Of a stretch of 44,493 nucleotides of DNA, positions 5,838 through 44,493 are shown one piece after another. Position 1 is the first letter of the stretch. Every line of letters begins with the position of its first letter. The DNA is from Flavobacteriales bacterium (GTDB lineage Bacteria; Bacteroidota; Bacteroidia; Flavobacteriales; JANQLC01): positions 1 to 44,493 of the forward strand of contig JBAJNK010000092.1 of assembly GCA_036881805.1 (NCBI GenBank), given 5' to 3'. Below the pieces are notes generated by a model. It was not told the origin of the DNA. It saw nothing but the letters and a program-made list of their open reading frames with translations, and did no database searches. Position numbers and translations under genes: made by a program.

Positions 5838-5923
5838 CGACTTTTTGTCAAATCATAAAAAAAGTCAAAGCTAGAAAGCGGGAAACGGCTCTTTATTGGG
5901 ATCGGCGCCTGGATATCGGGTAG

Positions 5924-8731
5924 CTAGGCCCAATGCGCTTCGAGCCAATTGTCACCGACGCCCAAATCGACCACGAGTGGTACAGCGAGCGGAAAGGCGT
6001 GCGCCATCTCATCCTTCACCAGCGCTTTGACGACCGGCAATTCTTCTCTCTGTACGTCAAAAACCAACTCATCGTGCACTTGCAACAGCATTTTACTCTG
6101 GATTTGAAGTTTGTTGAATCGCTGAAAAATGCGGTTCATCGCAACCTTGATGATATCTGCCGCACTGCCCTGTACCGGCGCATTTACCGCATTGCGCTCC
6201 GCATGGCGGCGCACGACGGAATTGTTGGCGTGTATATCTTTTAGATACCGCCGGCGCCCCAACAGGGTTTCCACATAACCCTGCTGACGGGCCCGCTCCA
6301 CTTGTGTGCTCAGAAAGTCTTTCAGGGTGGGATACGTATCGTAATACGCGTCGATCAGTCTTTTGGCCTCGGAACGCGAAAGTTCGGTTTGCGCGCTCAG
6401 CCCAAAGGCAGAAACGCCATATACAATGCCAAAATTAATCGTTTTGGCCTGGCTTCGCTGCGCACGCGTCACCGCTTTTAAATCCACCTCAAAAACCTTG
6501 GCCGCCGTGGCGACGTGTATATCTTCCCCCTTTTCAAAGGACTCGATCATCACGGGGTCTCGACTCATAGCGGCGATTAAGCGCAGTTCGATCTGTGAAT
6601 AATCGGCCGATAGTAAAACGTGGTCTTCATCCCTCGGCACAAATGCCCTGCGAATTTCCCGGCCGCGTGGACTGCGAATCGGAATATTTTGCAAATTCGG
6701 CTTATTGGAACTGAGACGCCCCGTAGCTGCTGTAGTCTGACTGTAAACGGTGTGTATGCGACCCGTTTTTTTATCCACCTCTCTGGGCAGGGCATCCACA
6801 TAGGTAGTTTGCAACTTCTGCAATTGGCGATAGTTCAAAATTTCATCCACAATCGGGTGTCTGCCGCTGAGCTTGTTCAATACGTCTTCTGATGTGGCAT
6901 ACTGCCCCGTTTTGGTCTTTTTGGGTTTTTCAGAGAGTTTCAACTTTTCAAATAAAACGGATCCGAGCTGTTTGGGCGAAGCGATGTTAAACATCCCTTC
7001 CGCGTATTCGTAAATTTGCGCTTCCACTTGTTGCATATCGGCGTGTAGCGCCTGGGAGAGGTGCTGCAAAGCAGTCGTATCGATTTTGATTCCCGCTACT
7101 TCCATGGCCTTCAACGCGTTTACCAAGGGCATTTCCACCTCGTAAAAGAGCTTTTCCACCTGGATCTTCTTCAGCTCCGGTTCAAAGCGGTTTTTCAAAC
7201 GAAGGGTGATATCGGTATCCTCCACCGCATATTCGGTTTGCAGCTGCACCGCCACTTCGCGCATGGACTTCTGATCCCTGCCCCGCTTACCGATCAAATG
7301 CTCGATTTCAATCGGCTTATAATTCAAATAGGTTTCGGCCAATATATCCATATTGTGGCGCATATCGGGATTGATCAGGTAGTGCGCTACCATGGTGTCG
7401 AAAAGCGATCCGGTAATTTGGACACCGTATTTGTGAAGCACCTTTAGGTCGTACTTAAAATTATGGGCGACCTTCACAATTTTCGCCGATTCAAAGAAAG
7501 GTTTAAATTCGGCGAGAATCCCACGCGTTTCATCAAAATCTTCGGGAAAGACGACGTAATACCCTTTACCAGGGGCATAGCTAAAAGCCAAACCGACCAA
7601 TTCCGCTTGCAGCGCATTTAATCCGGTAGTCTCGGTATCCAAACAGACCACCGATTGTTTCAAGAGGTTTTGAATCAAAAGTTTACGCCCCTGTTTTCCA
7701 GCTACGGTTTGGTACCAATGGTCAGCGGTTTGATGGGTGTGGTAGCCGTTGGGTTGCGCAGCTGTGGGCGGCGGAACGCCAGCTGTTTTGGGCGCCACAC
7801 CAAAAAGGGAAATCTGCTCCCCAGCTTCGTCTACCGTTCCAAATGCGCGCCAGACGGTTTCCCATGTACGTCTAAATTCCAGGTCTTTAAAAATCGCTTT
7901 TATCCGCTCCAAATCGGGTACGTCTGCCGCGAGGCGCTTTTCGTCAAACGATATGGGCACATCGGTTATGATGGTGGCCAGCCTTTTAGAGCGCAAGCCT
8001 TGCGCCTCGTGTGCTCGTATCTTTTCTCCCACCTTTCCCTTCAGCGCTGCTGCATGTGCAAAGAGGTTTTCCATGCTCCCGTATTCCGCCATGAATCGCT
8101 TGGCCGTCTTTTCCCCCACGCCGGGCAAGCCGGGAATATTGTCCACGCTATCGCCCATCATCCCCAAAAAATCGACGATCTGATCCGGGCGCGCCACGCC
8201 GAATTTCCGCTGCACCTTTGGGATGTCCCAGATTTCTATATCGCTTCCGCGCCCCGCTGGGCGATACATAAAGATTTTGTCGGAGATCAGTTGTGCGAAG
8301 TCCTTGTCAGCCGTCATCATATAAACCGTATAGCCCTGTATTTCGGCCTTTTTTGCCAAGGTACCGATTACATCGTCCGCCTCGTAACCCTCGGCGAATA
8401 GCACGGGAATGCGAAAGGCCTTTAAAATCTCTTGTATATAGGGCACAGCGGCGCGAATGGCTTCGGGTGTCTCCTCGCGATGAGCCTTGTATTCGGGATA
8501 TTCTCGGTGGCGAATCGTCTCGCCACCCACATCAAAAACCGCAGCGATATGCGTGGGCTTCTCGCGCTTGAGCAAGTCGATCAAGGTGTTGGTAAAGCCC
8601 AGGATGGCCGAGGTATTCAACCCCTTGGAGTTGACCCTCGGGTTCTTAATAAATGCGTAATAACCCCTGAAAATCAAAGCATACGAATCCAAGAGAAACA
8701 ATCTTTTGCCGTCCCTACCGGTTTTACCCAT
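5924..8731 (-). CDS. polA: DNA polymerase I
   Basis: 5'-3' exonuclease (LLDSYALIFRGYYA, YEADDVIGTL), 3'-5' exonuclease (DTETTG) and polymerase motifs (ADYSQIELR, AKTINFGIVYG, QVHDEL). Confidence 0.99.
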   Translation of the reverse strand: MGKTGRDGKRLFLLDSYALIFRGYYAFIKNPRVNSKGLNTSAILGFTNTLIDLLKREKPTHIAAVFDVGGETIRHREYPEYKAHREETPEAIRAAVPYIQEILKAFRIPVLFAEGYEADDVIGTLAKKAEIQGYTVYMMTADKDFAQLISDKIFMYRPAGRGSDIEIWDIPKVQRKFGVARPDQIVDFLGMMGDSVDNIPGLPGVGEKTAKRFMAEYGSMENLFAHAAALKGKVGEKIRAHEAQGLRSKRLATIITDVPISFDEKRLAADVPDLERIKAIFKDLEFRRTWETVWRAFGTVDEAGEQISLFGVAPKTAGVPPPTAAQPNGYHTHQTADHWYQTVAGKQGRKLLIQNLLKQSVVCLDTETTGLNALQAELVGLAFSYAPGKGYYVVFPEDFDETRGILAEFKPFFESAKIVKVAHNFKYDLKVLHKYGVQITGSLFDTMVAHYLINPDMRHNMDILAETYLNYKPIEIEHLIGKRGRDQKSMREVAVQLQTEYAVEDTDITLRLKNRFEPELKKIQVEKLFYEVEMPLVNALKAMEVAGIKIDTTALQHLSQALHADMQQVEAQIYEYAEGMFNIASPKQLGSVLFEKLKLSEKPKKTKTGQYATSEDVLNKLSGRHPIVDEILNYRQLQKLQTTYVDALPREVDKKTGRIHTVYSQTTAATGRLSSNKPNLQNIPIRSPRGREIRRAFVPRDEDHVLLSADYSQIELRLIAAMSRDPVMIESFEKGEDIHVATAAKVFEVDLKAVTRAQRSQAKTINFGIVYGVSAFGLSAQTELSRSEAKRLIDAYYDTYPTLKDFLSTQVERARQQGYVETLLGRRRYLKDIHANNSVVRRHAERNAVNAPVQGSAADIIKVAMNRIFQRFNKLQIQSKMLLQVHDELVFDVQREELPVVKALVKDEMAHAFPLAVPLVVDLGVGDNWLEAHWA

Positions 8732-26305: not shown

Positions 26306-29300
26306 TTATTTCAACGCTTTCAGCAATTCTCTAACCGCTGCTTCCAGCTGGGTGTCTCTGCCGTTTAAGCAGGCTGCATAGGGCAAGGGAACCAAAATAT
26401 CCGGTTCTAACTCCAGATTCTCCGTGGGTCGGCCTTCTTTGCCGATGGTGGCAATCATGGGAATACCGAATACGAGGGTCGGATCGATCTGTCTTTCCCA
26501 CCATACCGCTGTTCCGGTACCCGCCACCGGCATGCCCACCAATTTGCCAATGCCGTTTTGCCTATATACATAAGGAAAGAGAAATGCATCGCTGTAATTG
26601 CCTTCATTCATGAGGACAATGCTCGGCTTGGTCCAGCGATACGAGGGCTCTCCACCTTTTAGTACATGGCCTTGCGGCGCCCATTTCAAATATCGCTTAC
26701 CGCTCAAAAAGGTATTTAAATCATCGTGCAAGTTACCGCCGCCGTTAAAACGCGTATCGACCAACAATGCTTTTCTATCTCTGTTCTTACCAAATACATT
26801 TTCATAGAAAGCTCTAAAACTGCTGTCATCCATCTCGCGAACGTGAACATAGCCGATCTGACCCCCGCTCAAAGAATCGACCATCTCAGCCATGATCTGC
26901 GTCCATCGTTTATACATTAGCTTCCTTTCCGTTCGCATGGAAACGGGTTTAACGATTTCTTCCAAGCGCAAACCACCGCTCTTAATGGTCAACAGGGTGT
27001 TTTTACCCCTTATGTTATTCAGGTAGCGATTGGGGTTTTCATCGGCTTTAATGATCTTCCCATCGATCTTTGTGATGATATCGCCCGCTTTTATCTCAGT
27101 TCCAGCCTTATCGAGCGGACCGCCTTGTATGACTTCGCTCACTTTAATACCCGGGCCGGTATAGCACTCATCGTATAGCAGGCCCAGCGAAGCGGTTTGG
27201 GTACCATGACGATAGGGATAATAACGCGCGCCGGTATGGGATACATTGAGTTCGCCCAACGTCTCACTCAACAAGACTTGAAAATCGTAATTGTTGTCGA
27301 TATGGGGCAAAAACGCGGCGTATGCATCGCGATACATTTTCCAATCCATGCCGTGAATGGTGGGATCGTAGATCTTTTTGGTCACCTGTCTCCAAATGTG
27401 ATCGAATATGTATTTTCGCTCCGCAGCCGCATCGATTACCATATCGCCATCCAAATCTATATTTTTAACCCTACCACTTTGGGTATTGACTCGAACCGGT
27501 CTACCGCGATTGATCAGAAACAGGGTATTTCCGTCACCGCTGATTTGAATGCCGCTCGGGGAGCCGCCGAGTTTGGCCAGAATCCGGGTCTTTCTCGTCC
27601 TCGGCTCGGTTACCCAGAGGTCGTATCCCTTTTCAAAAGCGGATAGATAGTACAGCTTACTCGCATCTTTGTTTAAAGCGTAATCGCTGATATCGGAGCT
27701 GTTGATGGTCAGTCTTACTTTACGAGTATTGAGATTTTTTAAGTCGAAGCCCAACCGCTTTACTCTTTTACCCTTCTTCTTGGATTTTTTATCCGCCTGA
27801 TGCGCATCTTTTTTGTCTTTCTTCTCTTTCTTTTCCCGGTCTTTCAAAAGCGCAAAATCCGCTTTACTCAACTTATAGCGATCGTAAGCCTTGCGGTTGA
27901 AAAACACCGCATAAACGTCCGATTGGCGCCTCGAATTCTCGGCGAGCGATCGCTTGCCGTTGCGATTGGTCGAATAGGTCATCATCTTCCCGCCCATACC
28001 CCATTTGGCATCGTACTCACCAAATCCGCCGTTTACGGGATAGACGATCTCCCCGCTGCCATCGGCTTTGATCAACGCGGTATTCTCAAACGAATCATAT
28101 CCCCTTTCATCATCGACCAACAGCCATTTGCTGTCCGGGCTCCACGCAAAGCCCCAGTCACCATCCCGGTTGGAATAATTATGCCCTTGGGGCAATACCG
28201 TCGTCTTCACTTTGGTGTTGAGATTCAAAACTTTTAGGATATTTCGCTCATAGACAAAGGCGACTTTTTTGCCATCCGGCGAATAGCGCGGCTGAAATTC
28301 TTCCGCATCGGTTGCGATAAGGGGTTCCGTATGCAAGGCCGTCGAAGCGTAAAAATACTTTTCTTCGGGTCGGGTTAAGGTCACTTTATAAATATTCCAG
28401 CTCCCGTCTCGTTCACCGGAAAATAACAAAGTCTTGCCGTCCGGCGACCAATCGATCATGCGTTCTTGTTCGGGCGTATCGGTGATGCGTTTGGTCCTGG
28501 AGCCGGCCCCGGTGACGAATACCTCACCCCGGTTGACGAAAGCCAATTCCTTGCCATTGGGGCTTACCGCAAATTCGGTCACGGTGTTGATCTTTACATT
28601 TTTCTCAGTTTGAAACCCCGAATCATCCCGCACTTCAACCCGAAGTTTTTTGGGTTTATCCCCATCGGTAATCGTATATAAATCCCCCTTCCAAGTAAAA
28701 GCCAAAGCGTTAGTCCGGGAAACGCTCAAATGGCGAACGGGAAAATCGGTAAATGCGGTGAGTTGCTTTTCAGAGCCGCTTTCCAATGATTTTTTATACA
28801 GGTTTTGCGTGCCGTCTCTTTCACTTAAATAGTACACGTGCCGATCATCCGAAGCGAATACGGGCGCTCTGTCCTCACCTTTGAAATCGCTTAGTCGTCT
28901 ATAGGTGTTATCCCCGATGTCGTACAACCAAATATCCCGTGTAACGGAAGAGGTATGGTGTTTTCTATAGGGATCTTCATATCCCTTTCTGTCTTCAAAT
29001 ACAATTTTAGATCCGGTCGCGTTATAGTGCGCCTCCTCTGCCCCAGCAGCGGTCAGCAAAATGGGGCGGCCGCCCCTTACGGGAATGGTATATAAATTCT
29101 CAAAGAGGTGGGGGGTCGGAAATCGCACACTCTTTGCAGGTGCTTCCCGGCCACTGCCAAATAGTACTTTGCGGTTGTCTGGCGTAAAATCATAGGGGTA
29201 ATCCGCTGCGCTGTGGTAGGTAATCCGCACCGGGGTCCCGCCGGTAGATGGCATGGTATACACATCGAAATTACCATAGCGATCACTGGCAAAAGCCAGG

Positions 29301-29533
29301 GTTTTGCCATCGTGACTCCAAACCGGACGCATGTCATAAGCATCGCCCGTGGTAAGGGCGACAGCGGTCCCCCCCCGACCGCCTACCCGGTATAAATTCC
29401 CCCTATAACCGAAAACGATGGTTTTCCCATCGGGAGAAATGGCCGGGTAACGAATCCATCGGGCATTTCCTTGCGCCGGTAATGATAAGGCGGAAAAAAA
29501 GCACAGCATGGCAATCCAAAGGGGTTTCTTCAT
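26306..29533 (-). CDS. Tricorn-like S41 family peptidase (PD40 repeats, PDZ, S41)
   Basis: Signal peptide; many SPDGK/WSPD PD40 repeats; ELNVSHT, DTRFNGGG, catalytic YSDA and GKLVG.PV.GT motifs. Start ATG 29533 follows TACCTTTG at 29579-29586. Confidence 0.95.
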   Translation of the reverse strand: MKKPLWIAMLCFFSALSLPAQGNARWIRYPAISPDGKTIVFGYRGNLYRVGGRGGTAVALTTGDAYDMRPVWSHDGKTLAFASDRYGNFDVYTMPSTGGTPVRITYHSAADYPYDFTPDNRKVLFGSGREAPAKSVRFPTPHLFENLYTIPVRGGRPILLTAAGAEEAHYNATGSKIVFEDRKGYEDPYRKHHTSSVTRDIWLYDIGDNTYRRLSDFKGEDRAPVFASDDRHVYYLSERDGTQNLYKKSLESGSEKQLTAFTDFPVRHLSVSRTNALAFTWKGDLYTITDGDKPKKLRVEVRDDSGFQTEKNVKINTVTEFAVSPNGKELAFVNRGEVFVTGAGSRTKRITDTPEQERMIDWSPDGKTLLFSGERDGSWNIYKVTLTRPEEKYFYASTALHTEPLIATDAEEFQPRYSPDGKKVAFVYERNILKVLNLNTKVKTTVLPQGHNYSNRDGDWGFAWSPDSKWLLVDDERGYDSFENTALIKADGSGEIVYPVNGGFGEYDAKWGMGGKMMTYSTNRNGKRSLAENSRRQSDVYAVFFNRKAYDRYKLSKADFALLKDREKKEKKDKKDAHQADKKSKKKGKRVKRLGFDLKNLNTRKVRLTINSSDISDYALNKDASKLYYLSAFEKGYDLWVTEPRTRKTRILAKLGGSPSGIQISGDGNTLFLINRGRPVRVNTQSGRVKNIDLDGDMVIDAAAERKYIFDHIWRQVTKKIYDPTIHGMDWKMYRDAYAAFLPHIDNNYDFQVLLSETLGELNVSHTGARYYPYRHGTQTASLGLLYDECYTGPGIKVSEVIQGGPLDKAGTEIKAGDIITKIDGKIIKADENPNRYLNNIRGKNTLLTIKSGGLRLEEIVKPVSMRTERKLMYKRWTQIMAEMVDSLSGGQIGYVHVREMDDSSFRAFYENVFGKNRDRKALLVDTRFNGGGNLHDDLNTFLSGKRYLKWAPQGHVLKGGEPSYRWTKPSIVLMNEGNYSDAFLFPYVYRQNGIGKLVGMPVAGTGTAVWWERQIDPTLVFGIPMIATIGKEGRPTENLELEPDILVPLPYAACLNGRDTQLEAAVRELLKALK

Positions 29534-30085
29534 GGGATCGGTTTTATATTTCAAATGGACTTGTAAAAAGCGGGGGGGCAAAGGTATAAAATTCTATCTA
29601 TACCCGCTGCTGCACTTTACGCGTGTTTAATCTCCATAGCGTTGAGCCAAAACTGAGAGCTGGTCAAATCTCATGCCATTCGATAAGCAACCACCAGGTT
29701 CCGGCCAGTCGTCAACCCATCGGAATCAAGCCTTAATCGCATGAGGTATCAATAACAACTATTCCAATATCTATTAATAATATGACGCACTTGAAAAACA
29801 CCCATCTCGCGCGCAATGCAAGTTACTCGATCAAAGGGCACAGCCGTCTTGACATTTGGATGGAAAAAGCCCCCTACTCAGCGCTGTGATTTAGTTATTT
29901 GAGCGCTACTAAAGCCTTCATTTGCAGGATATAGCGCGTGTAGGGTAAGAAGACGGTTATTCCCCCTTCAAAATGACGATTAATCGGAAGTTTCTGGGCG
30001 TTTTCACGCCTCTTTCAATTCGGACCATTCGCTTTACCTCCCATAAGAAAGCGAAAAACACGAGACTCGTGCCAACGAAAGACGA

Positions 30086-30109
30086 CAAAAAGAGCGGCCG
30101 CTCTTTTTG
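30086..30109. terminator. Perfect 24-bp palindrome (bidirectional terminator-like)
   Basis: CAAAAAGAGCGGCCGCTCTTTTTG is its own reverse complement, giving a GC stem with T5 on both strands. Confidence 0.6.
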
Positions 30110-30139
30110 AGCTCGATCGATTCGGCTTCCGGATTATAT

Positions 30140-30620
30140 AAAGCCCCTTTTCAAACTGTCAACCGGCAAAAAATAAGGTGGGATATAGGCTATACCCATA
30201 TTGATCGATATCCCGATCAGGCTTTTGCAGCTGCGATACAGCACAGGGGTAAATAGACGAGACCAATCGCTTGGCGGCTTCTTATGACACGGCAGCCTTT
30301 TCAAAAGACCCGCAGGGGCAAAACCAAAGAAGTAAGACAGGCTTTCAAATCAACACTTAGCGGACAAAGCCAAAAGACAACCCGCCTTTTTAATCAACAG
30401 ACGGACAGGGCAAAGAAAATCCCAGTTTTCAAACCGACTTCCACAGGATAAGAGATAGCACGCTTTTCAAAACCACGCACAAGGAATAAACGCTAAAAAA
30501 ACAAGTCCCCTTTTCAGGCGCTCCCCATATGATTGTCAAGGGTATTCCACAGTTACGGAGCCCTGTGACTAAAGCAAAAAAATCCCTTCTTTTGAACCAA
30601 TGCGCACAGACGAATACAAG
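30140..30620 (+). repeat. Degenerate tandem array A (core CCC(G)CTTTTCAAAC, period ~38-47 bp)
   Basis: T-tract cores at about 30148, 30298, 30343, 30387, 30426, 30464, 30511 and 30590, each followed by an A/C-rich then (C)ACAaGGG..AAA segment. Confidence 0.7.
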
Positions 30621-30680
30621 CGGGAAAAATAAAAAGGTCAAACTCCCCGTAGGGGTGCGCTAAAAGTATTGGAAAAAAGC

Positions 30681-31457
30681 TCAGGCTTCTTCCCGCGATG
30701 TCCATACGGCCTTCCCGTATTCGCGATTCATACGCGCGATGTGTTCCAAGGCGATCCCCTTGGGGCACTCGGCTTCACAGGCACCCGTCACAGAGCAATT
30801 TCCAAAGCCCTCCGCATCCATTTGGCGCACCATATGTTGAACCCGGCGCTTCCGCTCGATCTGTCCCTGGGGCAAATGCGCGAGGTGGGACACTTTGGCC
30901 GCTGTAAAGAGCATGGCGGAACCGTTTTTACAAGTGGCCACGCAAGCGCCGCAGCCGATGCAGCTCGCGGCATCAAAGGCCTGGTCTGCATCGTGCTTAT
31001 TGACCGGAATGCTATCCGCATCCTGTGTGTTTCCACTGGTGTTTACAGAGATAAAACCCCCGGCTTGCAACACACGGTCAAAAGCGCTCCGATCGACGAC
31101 CAAATCCTTGATGACCGGAAAGGCACGCGAACGCCAGGGTTCGATATAAATGATCTCCCCATCGCGAAAGCTGCGCATATGCAATTGACAAGTCGTAATG
31201 CCGCGTAAGGGGCCGTGTGGTCGGCCGTTGATATACAGGGAACAACTGCCGCAGATGCCTTCCCGACAATCGTAGTCAAAGGCTACGGGCTCTTTTCCGG
31301 CTTCGATCAAATCGCCATTCAACACGTCGAGCATCTCCAGAAAGGAACTGTCTGTAGAAATGCCCTTTACGCGATGGGTTTCAAATTTTCCACTGGCCTC
31401 AGCGTGTTTCTGCCGCCAAATTTTCAGGATTAACGCCAGCGTTTTTCTATCTGCCAT
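30681..31457 (-). CDS. sdhB: Succinate dehydrogenase/fumarate reductase Fe-S subunit
   Basis: [27 protein letters not shown] and [15 protein letters not shown] motifs. Confidence 0.97.
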
Positions 31458-31476: not shown

Positions 31477-33489
31477 TTATTTATAGGATCGCGTCTTGAG
31501 TGCTACATTTTCAAAGGCGAGCGATTCCCGGTGCAGCGATTCCCGATTGATGTCGGCGCCTCGGTAGGCCCAGGCGGCTACATAGGCGTAGTCCACATCG
31601 TTGCGCAGCGCTTCACCTTCAGGCGTCTGGTGTGCTAAACGAAAGTGTCCGCCACAGGATTCATCTCGGCCTAAAGCATCGATAGCCACCAACTGTCCCA
31701 ACTCCAAAAAATCGGCTACACGGCCTGCTTTTTCCAATTCGGGGTTTAAGCCATCGGCTGAACCCGGCACGCGTACCGATTTCCAAAAGGATTCGCGCAG
31801 CTGTTGAATGCCATCGATCGCCTCGCGCAAGCCCGCTGCGCTGCGCGTCATGCCCACCTGATTCCACATGATCTCGCCCAGCTTTTTGTGAAAGTAGTCC
31901 ACGGCATGCGATCCCTTATGACACAGCAATTTTTCGATTCGCTCGTGCACCCCGCGCGCCGCTGCATCGAATTCGGGGGTGTCTGTCGGAATGGGTCCAG
32001 TGCGAATGTCGTCGGCCAGGTAGTTCGGCAGCGTATAGGGCAGGATGAAATAGCCGTCTGCCAAACCTTGCATCAGCGCCGATGCGCCCAAGCGATTGGC
32101 GCCGTGATCGGAGAAGTTGGCTTCTCCGATGACAAAGCAGCCCGGTATGCTGGACATCAAGTCGTAGTCCACCCACAAACCGCCCATGGTGTAGTGCACT
32201 GCGGGATAGATCTTCATGGGCGTTTCGTATGGATCTGCGCCGGTGATCTGCCGGTACATATCGAATAGATTGCCATATTTATCCGCTATCCATCTTTTAC
32301 CGAGTGCTTTGATCGCTTCCGCTGAGGGGTTTTCCATGCCCGCTTCATAAGCGCTTTCGGTTCCCCGCCGGTGAATTTCGGTCGAGAAGTCCAAGAATAC
32401 GCCTTCTTTCGCATCGTTGTCTTCGATCCCATAACCCGCATCGCAGCGCTCTTTGGCCGCACGTGAAGCCACATCGCGGGGGACGAGATTGCCAAAGGCC
32501 GGATACCGGCGCTCGAGGTAATAGTCGCGGTCTGCTGCCTGGATATCCACAGGCCGGCACTTGCCTGCTCGGATGGCCTGGGCGTCTGATCGCTTTTTGG
32601 GCACCCAGATCCGACCCGAGTTTCGGAGCGACTCGGACATCAGGGTGAGCTTGGACTGAAATGGGCCGTGCACCGGAATGCAAGTCGGGTGAATCTGCAC
32701 GAAACAGGGGTTGGCAAAGTAAGCGCCCCTCTTATGCGCCTTCCAAGTGGCCGAACAGTTGGAACCCATCGCATTGGTAGAGAGAAAATAGACGTTGCCA
32801 TAGCCCCCCGATGCGAGGATTACCGCATGGGCGGCATAACGCTCGATTTCACCGGTCACCAGATTTCTCGCGATAATGCCCCGGGCTTTGCCGTCCATCA
32901 GAACGATGTCCAGCATCTCGTGGCGGTTGTACATCTCAACGCGTCCCTTAGCGATTTGCCGAGACAGGGCTTGATAGGCGCCCAAGAGCAGTTGTTGGCC
33001 GGTTTGGCCCTTGGCGTAAAAGGTGCGCTTCACCTGTACGCCCCCAAAAGAGCGGTTGTCCAACAGTCCCCCGTACTCGCGTGCAAAAGGTACGCCCTGG
33101 GCCACGCATTGGTCGATGATGTGACCCGATACCTGCGCCAACCGATATACGTTGGCCTCTCGAGAGCGGTAATCCCCCCCCTTTATCGTATCGTAAAACA
33201 GACGGTAAACCGAATCGTTATCTCCCTGATAATTTTTGGCTGCATTGATCCCGCCCTGCGCGGCGATGGAGTGTGCGCGGCGCGGGGAATCCTGATAACA
33301 AAACGATCTGATTCGATAACCCAATTCAGCTAGGGTGGCTGCTGCTGCGGCACCGGCCAAGCCGGTGCCGACTACGACGATATCGATGCGATCGCGGTTG
33401 TTGGGCGCTACCAAACGGTAACCGGCTTTGGCATTATGCCATTTTTCAGCGAGGTCGCCCTCGGGTATATGTGGATCGAAATGGGCCAT
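31477..33489 (-). CDS. sdhA: Succinate dehydrogenase/fumarate reductase flavoprotein subunit
   Basis: [37 protein letters not shown] and ESCGGHFR motifs. Confidence 0.98.
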
Positions 33490-43195: not shown

Positions 43196-43681
43196 ATGAA
43201 AGTGATCGTCTATACCGATGGCGCCACAAGCGGTAACCCCGGTCCTGGCGGGTATGGCGTCTATATGTTTACCCGAGAAATTAAGCGGTCTAAGCAGCTC
43301 TCCCAAGGGTTTCGGCTCACCACCAACAACCGCATGGAGCTCATGGCCGTTATCGCGGCACTCGAACAGCTCAAGAATCCACCCCAGGATGTTGAATTGC
43401 ACACCGATTCCAAGTACATAAGCGATGCGGTAAACCAGTCTTGGCTGTGGCGCTGGGCAAAGGGAAATTTTAAAGACAAAAAAAATGCGGATTTGTGGCA
43501 CCGGTTTATCCGGCTTTATAAAAAACACCGGGTAAAGATCAATTGGGTGAAAGGCCATGCGGAAAATCCATACAACCAGCACGTAGACGGCTTGGCGGTT
43601 GCCGCTTCCCAAGGAGATGCCCTGCACGTGGATCGCAACTATGAGAAAAGCCATTTTTTCAGGCCGCGCCCACAAGGGTAA
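43196..43681 (+). CDS. rnhA: Ribonuclease HI
   Basis: YTDG...GNPGPGG, TTNNRMEL, TDSKY, N.DLW and WVKGHA...N...D.LA motifs. Confidence 0.97.
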   Translation: MKVIVYTDGATSGNPGPGGYGVYMFTREIKRSKQLSQGFRLTTNNRMELMAVIAALEQLKNPPQDVELHTDSKYISDAVNQSWLWRWAKGNFKDKKNADLWHRFIRLYKKHRVKINWVKGHAENPYNQHVDGLAVAASQGDALHVDRNYEKSHFFRPRPQG

Positions 43682-44200
43682 AAAACGAGTCCCGCTTTTT
43701 AAACTGCCAAACGCGGGAAAAACAAATCCACAAAAGGGTAAAAACAGGGTATAAGACCGACTTTTTAAGCCGACACACGAGGCGAGGACAAAAGACGAGT
43801 GGCGCTTTCAAGTTTCAAGGCTTTACAAAAGATTAGCAGCGCGCACCCACTGTGGACAAAAGCAAAAAACCCCTCTTTTTTCAAACTACCCTATATGGAG
43901 GAAAAACGCTTTTTAAATCATTCTCTAAGGTAAAGAGATAAAGGATAACCCCCGCTTTTCAAACCGACCCCACAAAGAAAAATAATCCTCCAATCGACGC
44001 TAGGAAAAAAACCACAAACGAGACCGGATACTTTTTCAAACACGTCGCAGGTCAAAACCAACAGCAATGGGTATAAGTGCTCAAACGCTCGATCGGACAA
44101 AAATAAAACCCCACTTTCAAGCCACAAGAGGTCAAAGCCAAAAAAGCCCCTTTTTCAAACTGTCACACAGAAAAAAACAAATCCGATTTTTAGGCACCGC
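43645..44200 (+). repeat. Degenerate tandem array B (same family as array A)
   Basis: Cores at about 43656, 43696, 43762, 43806, 43878, 43910, 43956, 44033, 44115, 44152 and 44187. AAAGCCCCTTTT(T)CAAACTGTCA occurs at both 30140 and 44143; TTTTCAAACCGAC occurs at both 30426 and 43956. Confidence 0.72.
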
Positions 44201-44239
44201 GCATCCGAGGCGCGATACAAACCATTCAAGGGGAAAACA

Positions 44240-44493
44240 CTCGGACTTTCCAGTCCAAGAGATCAGGACCCAGATGTCAGTTTGAAATATTACGACCCCC
44301 GTTTTCAGTGCTTTAGCGAGTGGGGACAAAGTGAGTTAAAATCTTTCTCCGCCTTTGTTAAAAAACTGCGCACCACAACTTGGACGGATATTTACAAGAG
44401 CTCTGGAAGTAGCGGAAAAAAGTAGGATTTGGAATGACCTACCACAAGGATATAAAAAAGCTACCCTCATTAGAAGTGACTCAAAAAATAAGC
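44240..44493 (+). pseudogene. Start-less, frameshifted MAG6450/RelE-like protein fragment (runs off the window)
   Basis: VSLKYYDPRFQCFSEWGQSELKSFSAFVKKLRTTTWTDIYKSSG, then a frameshift at A6 (44416-44421), then VGFGMTYHKDIKKLPS. No in-frame ATG upstream; family recognised from memory only. Confidence 0.5.

Follow-up and report, generated by a model that had tools for sequence, protein, structure and literature searches.

Genome-wide head-to-tail arrays of heterogeneous 40-bp repeats in an uncultured Flavobacteriales genus

Mycobacterial interspersed repetitive units (MIRU) are direct tandem repeats of ~40-100 bp that are intergenic and dispersed, with no inverted ends and no known transposase; the copies within a locus are near-identical, their number varies between strains and there are ~40 loci. 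The repetitive extragenic palindromes (REP) and bacterial interspersed mosaic elements (BIME) of enterobacteria and pseudomonads have units of ~35-40 bp that form arrays behind genes, reach hundreds of copies and join other short motifs in mosaics; a REP unit is an imperfect palindrome, its orientation alternates within BIMEs and it is tied to REP-associated tyrosine (RAYT, Y1) transposases. Here we characterize a row of degenerate ~40-bp repeats, Array A, that lies behind the succinate dehydrogenase gene sdhB in a 44,493-nt contig of a Flavobacteriales bacterium (JBAJNK010000092.1, assembly GCA_036881805.1; the whole contig was analysed and is referred to as the window), together with the repeat family to which it belongs.

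Three further systems are relevant to the comparison. The Neisseria intergenic mosaic elements (NIME) comprise dRS3, a 20-bp inverted repeat (ATTCCC-N8-GGGAAT), and RS elements of ~50-150 bp (PMC1797815). BrickBuilt, a MITE (miniature inverted-repeat transposable element) from Porphyromonas gingivalis, is a tandem 23-nt repeat without spacers that has leader and tail subunits with inverted-repeat ends and is present in 19 copies per genome (PMC4596501). The TAACTGA heptamers of Beggiatoaceae, Cyanobacteria and some Bacteroidetes are contiguous and lie mostly just upstream of start codons (PMC4679880).

The arrays described here have in common with MIRU that they are intergenic, dispersed direct repeats without inverted ends or a known transposase, and with REP/BIME the unit size, the clustering behind genes, a copy number in the hundreds and the formation of mosaics. 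They share with NIME a short conserved repeat that alternates with variable segments in many families, long intergenic arrays that are mosaic and dynamic between related genomes, a range of one genus, the lack of coding capacity and recombination between arrays as the proposed driver (PMC1797815). BrickBuilt resembles them as an always-intergenic repeat array of limited host range in the same phylum (PMC4596501), and the TAACTGA repeats as abundant, lineage-restricted, intergenic direct repeats without assigned function (PMC4679880). The closest analogue in layout and dynamics is NIME, with MIRU, REP/BIME and BrickBuilt more distant. Because the defining features of each named family fail, we place the family among the bacterial interspersed intergenic repeat arrays as a variant of its own.

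Array A and the genome-wide repeat family

Units were located with a position weight matrix built from all genome copies, with a threshold of at least 7 bits. Between 30140 and 30620 the matrix gives nine matches on the + strand and none on the - strand. The unit cores, taken at the core C of the CTTTTYAAAC-like boxes, lie at 30147, 30222, 30297, 30341, 30385, 30425, 30463, 30510 and 30588, the unit at 30222 being weak (7.2 bits), and are spaced by 75, 75, 44, 44, 40, 38, 47 and 78 bp. An earlier sequence-only reading of the window had quoted five units, all of which are present, and had given spacings of 45, 44, 39, 38 and 47 bp. It had also drawn the repeat from 30140 to 30620, where Array A indeed lies on the + strand, whereas the repeat-like insertion around it is wider, ~29930-30680. 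In 300 dinucleotide-preserving shuffles of the region the mean number of + strand matches was 0.48 and the maximum 3, against nine in the real sequence, so the array is significant against shuffles that preserve composition; at 11 bits, seven matches were observed against a shuffle mean of 0.10.

Array A is one of ~150 arrays spread over the genome rather than a device confined to the sdh locus. As contig C92, the window belongs to a draft genome (G000) of 1.57 Mb in 106 contigs, with 48% G+C and 86% completeness; the genome itself has a size of roughly 1.8 Mb. A genome scan with the iterated matrix, which the sequence-only reading had proposed, returns 1465 sites in the draft where a Markov control predicts ~153; the core CTTTTYAAA occurs 468 times and the 13-mer CCSCTTTTYAAAC 85 times in exact form, its reversed control not once. 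The unit consensus consists of a short C-run, CTTTTYAAAC (the T4-Y-A3 box), a loose CGCCACACAGGG (CACAGGG-like) and an A-rich tail, often AAAAAATAAG; the two boxes that had been proposed, a conserved T-tract/A-tract box and a looser CACAGGG-like one, are thus both found. The distance between neighbouring sites on the same strand is 34-50 bp and has a bimodal distribution (38-39 and 44-47 bp).

The draft contains 205 arrays with at least two units and 147 with at least three, the longest having 18 units. With 60-bp flanks included, the 147 array regions amount to 61,486 bp, or ~3.9% of the draft, and, because 49 of the 212 contig ends stop inside an array, the real share of the genome is probably higher; the same contig ends indicate that the arrays explain the fragmented assembly. 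Adjacent units form 827 same-strand pairs and 8 opposite-strand pairs. There are 347 lone matrix hits, of which 273 fall in coding sequence, where they are likely to be chance, and 74 are intergenic. The polarity and the small number of lone intergenic units show that the element is the head-to-tail array and not the unit. Genome-wide, the motif strand of the arrays has a composition of A 0.40, C 0.26, G 0.16 and T 0.18, in agreement with the strand asymmetry first read from Array A.

A second array in the window, proposed earlier at 43640-44220, belongs to the same family. Array B has cores at 43655, 43695, 43761, 43877, 43909, 43955, 44113 and 44151, and its eight units in the region 43640-44260 compare with a shuffle mean of 1.0 and a maximum of 4. 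It lies in sense directly 3' of rnhA, whose end is overlapped by the first unit. Contigs C73 (88.5%) and C19 (84.0%) have a block of 209-256 bp in common with Array B, and the partners switch at unit borders. Tandem Repeats Finder at a score of at least 30 reported 13 rows in the window, none of them inside Array A or B, and in a general repeat search of the window the two arrays gave merely short two-copy families; the units are so degenerate that both arrays are invisible to standard repeat tools.

The arrays are non-coding, as had been claimed: no Pfam family was found for the seven open reading frames (ORFs) of Arrays A and B, and unit lengths vary by non-multiples of 3. Hairpins seen by eye had suggested a stem-loop or structured RNA, an idea that we reject since the mean best stem is 2.74 bp in real units, 2.72 bp in chimeras of unrelated units and 2.59 bp in shuffles (n=1456). 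Rfam gave no match at the gathering score in the window and none at E up to 1 in 29580-30690; no description of the repeat was found in the literature, supplementary files aside, in keeping with its having been called undescribed. The sequence-only reading had further proposed sites about four helical turns apart with phased A/T tracts. This did not hold: the AA/TT autocorrelation is negative at lags 9-11, no 10-11 bp periodicity is present and the spacing is broad and bimodal, which speaks against phased tracts four turns apart, and intrinsically curved DNA is rejected for want of AA/TT helical periodicity.

Turnover, host range and placement

Unit identity over 35 nt has a mean of 0.492 within arrays and 0.496 between arrays; units in one array being as alike as units of different arrays, recent local duplication cannot account for the arrays. 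Arrays at separate loci have multi-unit blocks in common, 100-275 bp long and 80-97% identical, and the variable segments form families that recur at other loci. The relatives of Array A in the genome are weak. By blastn against the genome, 30146-30247 matches contig C87 at 81.6% over 103 bp, the best relative, and contig C61 at 76.9% over 104 bp, and contigs from other loci match onto 30215-30247. The ends of the shared blocks cluster around the core and the conserved tail, are scattered across more than 20 nt and define no single site; a site-specific, integron-like junction was considered and rejected, the spread of the block ends being explicable by BLAST extension through the conserved boxes.

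Two contigs from two public runs of different studies (11,849 nt and 11,661 nt) span 29300-31000 unbroken, with 1 and 5 base differences, respectively, and zero units gained or lost. These spans indicate that Array A is real DNA and not an assembly artefact, and that it is stable within the population, with the proviso that the first contig possibly derives from the sample behind the assembly itself.

The closest named relative, a metagenome-assembled genome of a sister species of the same genus (G001; SdhB 89% identical), harbours the family as well, roughly half as densely (107 hits over 213 kb examined). It holds 20 copies of the 13-mer, and 29 other genomes hold 0-3. A pattern of two cores occurs in 2 of 401 genomes of the order (105 genera, 18 families), both in this genus. 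Elsewhere the pattern matches 74 viral stretches and at least 114 metagenome stretches; since, among the matches listed, none of these 188 loci holds more than two correctly spaced units, the matches are regarded as chance.

At the corresponding locus (L001), the sister species has the same synteny of sdhB and the protease gene, and lacks the ~750 bp that directly follow the sdhB stop and comprise Array A in full along with its hairpins; the remaining ~350 bp up to the protease gene align between the two species. Among 59 orthologous intergenic regions, four have at least three units in either species, with unit numbers in G000 and G001 of 10/5, 6/1, 0/6 and 0/3, and the 6/1 pair is unalignable despite flanking genes that are 81-87% identical. 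The comparison indicates that arrays are gained and lost between the two species.

Placement was judged from our own crude ORF calls, which give 1307 genes and cover 83% of the draft, a coding density that is low for such a genome size. Per kb, matrix hits number 3.83 in intergenic DNA, 0.83 in short ORFs, many of which are spurious ones across arrays, and 0.23 in long genes. By context, the 147 arrays divide into 39 convergent, 31 tandem-sense, 14 tandem-antisense and 5 divergent ones and 58 that touch a contig end, counts from which it appears that arrays favour the space behind gene ends and avoid gaps that contain promoters only. Roughly 80 of the ~1300 genes have an array behind them, and the full set of gene end-array pairs comprises 43 in sense and 37 in antisense. 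One array that only the sister species carries fits exactly into the interval from a hairpin-plus-T terminator to a promoter-like block, both conserved. Such terminators are rare behind the genes of the draft (27 among 450 gene ends, compared with 11 among 450 in shuffles); at array-bearing gene ends they number 2 of 43 in sense and 6 of 37 in antisense, both small counts.

Setting of the arrays in the window

Array A lies inside a 1.1-kb gap that separates two - strand genes, sdhB and a gene for a tricorn-type protease (Table 1), and its + strand units are therefore antisense to both. In the direction of transcription, sdhB (stop at 30681) is the upstream neighbour and the protease gene, whose longest ORF begins at 29581, the downstream one. 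The insertion that contains Array A also holds more degenerate unit-like pieces (e.g. ~29965 and ~30008) and hairpins. The hairpin over the sdhB stop codon is a prediction; if it works, Array A would lie past the end of the sdh transcript. The perfect palindrome, beyond Array A, is terminator-like in both directions.

Table 1. Coordinates of the arrays, neighbouring genes and other features. Positions refer to the window unless another contig is named.
Feature	Position	Strand	Basis
Array A	30141..30635	+	9 head-to-tail units by matrix scan
One unit plus non-unit module recurring at other arrays	30146..30247	+	blastn against the genome
Repeat-rich insertion	29930..30680		sdhB stop to conserved promoter region of the protease gene
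sdhB, iron-sulfur subunit of succinate dehydrogenase/fumarate reductase	30681..31457	-	ORF; Pfam Fer2_3 (6.7e-24) and Fer4 families
Tricorn-type protease homologue	26306..29581	-	Longest ORF; Pfam PD40, Peptidase_S41, Tricorn_C1, PDZ_Tricorn
Perfect 12+12 palindrome, then T-rich on the - strand	30086..30109		Arms 100% complementary, 0 nt between; terminator scan
Terminator-like hairpin overlapping the sdhB stop codon	30671..30694	-	Terminator scan: 10 pairs, loop of 4, T-rich tail
Second terminator-like hairpin	30057..30073	-	Terminator scan
Array B, same repeat family	43650..44195	+	8 units by matrix scan
rnhA (RNase H)	43196..43681	+	ORF; Pfam RNase_H (2.4e-36)
AbiP2 reverse transcriptase, draft genome	G000:C41:3769-4086 (locus L107 838-2393)	-	Split, ORFs of 197 and 313 aa
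AbiP2 reverse transcriptase, sister species	G001:C37 (locus L106 871-2427)	-	Intact, 518 aa

Some further observations concern the same loci. On the - strand, 30133-30162 matches the sigma-70 consensus at 12 of 12 positions (TTGACA, 18 nt, TATAAT) within the first Array A unit read as its reverse complement; the match may be chance, and Bacteroidota use a promoter type other than the sigma-70 consensus. In front of the protease gene, a - strand block at 29579-29586, also conserved in the sister species, has the sequence TACCTTTG; a conserved ATG follows ~46 nt further on, at ~29533. The block fits TAnnTTTG, the consensus of the Bacteroidota promoter box, and together with the conserved ATG suggests that the true start of the protease gene may be ~29533 rather than the TTG at 29581. 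Further upstream of this gene, also on the - strand, a block of ~30 nt at 29780-29810 (5915-5945 in the sister locus L001), a T-run followed by CAA, is kept in both species; it resembles a lone unit core, but as it is conserved it is more likely to be a regulatory site. The draft has a second sdhA/frdA-like flavoprotein gene (G000:C54:2753-4675), at least 60% identical over at least 80 aa to the sdhA at 31477-33489. Past Array B, 44282-44493 contains short ORF fragments with a weak match to DUF6686 (E=0.047, under the cut-off), possibly what is left of a gene truncated where the contig stops.

Comparison with described repeats and interpretation

In light of these data, the identities of several known repeats can be set aside, in agreement with the earlier statement that Array A is not a clustered regularly interspaced short palindromic repeat (CRISPR) array, a REP or a simple minisatellite. 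A CRISPR array is rejected because the units are 49% identical over 35 nt, repeat tools are blind to them and the variable parts recur at other loci. Compared with MIRU, or any minisatellite with variable numbers of tandem repeats, adjacent units within an array are again only 49% identical, ~150 loci are occupied, and the two spanning contigs show point differences and no gain or loss of units. REP/BIME is rejected since there is no palindrome or other hairpin signal (stems of 2.74 against 2.72 bp), the units are strictly head-to-tail (827 against 8), and no Y1 transposase (RAYT, PF01797) was found in either of the two genus genomes, both incomplete drafts, while the control search was positive in 6 of 14 genomes.

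A MITE, BrickBuilt included, is rejected for lack of terminal inverted repeats, leader and tail subunits and a multi-copy protein gene: no common leader, tail or inverted end was found in the flanks of 91 arrays, although degenerate ends could escape such a search, and no multi-copy protein family was found in the genome, where there are only 11 pairs. The flanks of these arrays give 51 and 60 high-scoring segment pairs per side out of 4095 possible, which fade with distance. Compared with BrickBuilt, the units here are 38-47 bp long and heterogeneous, no conserved leader or tail was found and there are ~150 arrays (PMC4596501). The TAACTGA repeats differ in that the arrays here are built of 40-bp units, which for the most part follow gene ends (PMC4679880).

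The sequence family of NIME is rejected as well, the unit consensus having neither the dRS3 motif nor an inverted repeat. In kind, the arrays agree with NIME: a conserved repeat is combined with variable families, and the arrays are intergenic, genus-specific and dynamic. Compared with NIME, the box is here an asymmetric T4-Y-A3, the variable part is just ~25-35 bp, all units run in the same direction, NIME positions are mostly syntenic between species whereas many of those seen here are not, and no phage or recombinase is known to target the box (PMC1797815).

We therefore regard the arrays, with only modest confidence, as probably genus-specific, recombining, near-neutral mosaic repeat DNA that is nearest in layout to the Neisseria arrays. 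The element is the array and not the single unit, a head-to-tail run of 3-18 or more heterogeneous units of 38-47 bp, and multi-unit blocks have been copied to, or exchanged with, other loci. As near-neutral DNA it would spread and persist through homologous or microhomology-driven recombination and gene conversion between arrays, with the conserved A/T-tract boxes as the probable points of contact, and it would settle in the dead zone from a gene end to the next promoter, where insertions are presumably tolerated. The arrays would have no dedicated RNA or protein product; layout and dynamics would be like those of the Neisseria mosaic elements, in a different sequence family.

Several observations weigh against near-neutrality. 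The two species retain the same unit type though their intergenic DNA is no longer alignable, so that continued copying or selection is needed. A triplet test on paralogous blocks, which avoids ascertainment bias by defining sites in one copy (A) and scoring the differences between two others (B and C), gave 7.7% differences in the T4/A3 box compared with 13.8% at other A/T positions and 22% at G/C positions; the upstream A-run is also slow to change. The slow box could reflect constraint, and hence function, although the triplets are mutually dependent and low mutability of A/T runs could also slow it. Orientation is not random either: counted per array with local skew, the C/A-rich strand of the array is the strand that is C-rich at third codon positions in 73 of 111 arrays (66%, p=0.001). 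By contig, arrays lie mainly on the - strand where, after correction for gene strand, the + strand is G-rich at third codon positions, and conversely (counts of 41/65 and 74/25, p=3e-7 by Fisher test; rho of -0.46 across 77 contigs). In this analysis, tandem contexts comprise 26 sense and 11 antisense arrays. Purely neutral DNA need not show any orientation bias; the biases are real but moderate, and are compatible with either weak functional polarity or a side effect of array origin or tolerance. We further count against this reading that its route of transfer to new loci is inferred only, that the gene calls are crude, and that a draft of 86% completeness that breaks at the arrays may hide a transposase or a binding protein.

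Some of these observations would also be expected if the arrays were rows of binding sites for a genus-specific protein, a nucleoid-associated protein, a recombinase or a translocase-orienting factor that reads the T4-Y-A3 box; in its recombinase version this parallels what has been proposed for dRS3 in Neisseria. The slow box and A-run, the regular 34-50 bp spacing, the strict head-to-tail polarity, the moderate skew-linked orientation bias and the unit consensus kept in both species are all consistent with it. We nevertheless consider it rather unlikely. No candidate protein emerged, the A/T tracts lack helical phasing and arrays are freely gained and lost between the sister species. The C-rich consensus positions differ in 23-25% of cases in the triplet test, like any G/C site. 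FtsK-orienting polar sequences (KOPS) and motifs of that type are strongly skewed, whereas the agreement in orientation here is just 66% and no sharper where the contig skew is stronger.

A role at the level of RNA is still harder to reconcile with the data, and we hold it to be improbable. In this case sense arrays would act as C-rich, G-poor, unstructured 3' tails that load Rho, in the manner of Rho-utilisation (rut) sites, or that bind or titrate an RNA-binding protein. The composition of the motif strand (C 0.26, G 0.16) without hairpins, the preference for gene 3' ends, the excess of sense arrays in tandem contexts and the rarity of hairpin-plus-T terminators would suit such a role, and Rho is encoded in both genus genomes. 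However, Array A runs antisense to the genes on either side and comes after the terminator-like hairpin at the sdhB stop, the array of the sister species described above lies past a conserved intrinsic terminator, sense and antisense are nearly balanced over all pairs of gene end and array (43 and 37), merely ~80 of ~1300 genes precede an array, and CsrA is found in neither of the two genomes.

That the arrays are decayed repeat-protein genes, which had been named as the outcome that would overturn the first description of Array A, or integrated products of a reverse transcriptase is very improbable. An A-rich tail ends each unit and each of the two genus genomes has one reverse transcriptase gene, but unit lengths that vary by non-multiples of 3 and the seven array ORFs without a Pfam family argue against decayed genes. 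The reverse transcriptase is an AbiP2-type defence enzyme (PADLOC AbiP2, E=4.7e-182), split in the draft and located near restriction and toxin-antitoxin-type genes; the array motif is neither near its locus nor enriched there, and the link was rejected. The gene adjoins HSDR_N and NTase_sub_bind genes, an arrangement that resembles a small defence island.

Guide-RNA arrays of a CRISPR-like system or of the tandem interspaced guide RNA (TIGR) type, the latter having been offered earlier as a processed small-RNA array, deserve almost no credence, and the TIGR-like reading is close to refuted: the likeness is a superficial one of layout, conserved boxes alternating with variable segments, whereas there are 147 arrays of at least three units over ~4% of the genome and not one or few, the boxes are degenerate, the variable segments recur as families at other loci, Array A had no phage match, no viral-contig match among those listed is such an array, and the Nop domain (PF01798), which the Tas proteins of TIGR-Tas carry, was found in neither genus genome (86% and 92% complete) with a control search that was positive in four archaea.

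Taken together, the genus-specific, probably near-neutral arrays represent a distinct architecture among bacterial interspersed repeats, in which heterogeneous 40-bp units run head to tail and no palindrome, inverted ends or transposase were found, and a share of 4% repeat DNA is unexpected in the small genome of an uncultured Flavobacteriales genus. The arrays can be used as a marker of the genus and offer a natural test case for whether non-palindromic arrays are spread and maintained by recombination alone or through a binding factor. Array A also illustrates that an apparent local oddity can be one copy of a genome-wide family, which only the view of the whole genome reveals. It is doubtful that the arrays are a working part of the cell, in which a lineage-restricted protein would read the T4-Y-A3 box in polar, replication-biased rows to organise the chromosome or steer recombination, or the C/A-rich strand would be cut into unit-length RNAs; if this were true, they would constitute a new kind of genome-wide cis-element that occupies 4% of a small bacterial genome.

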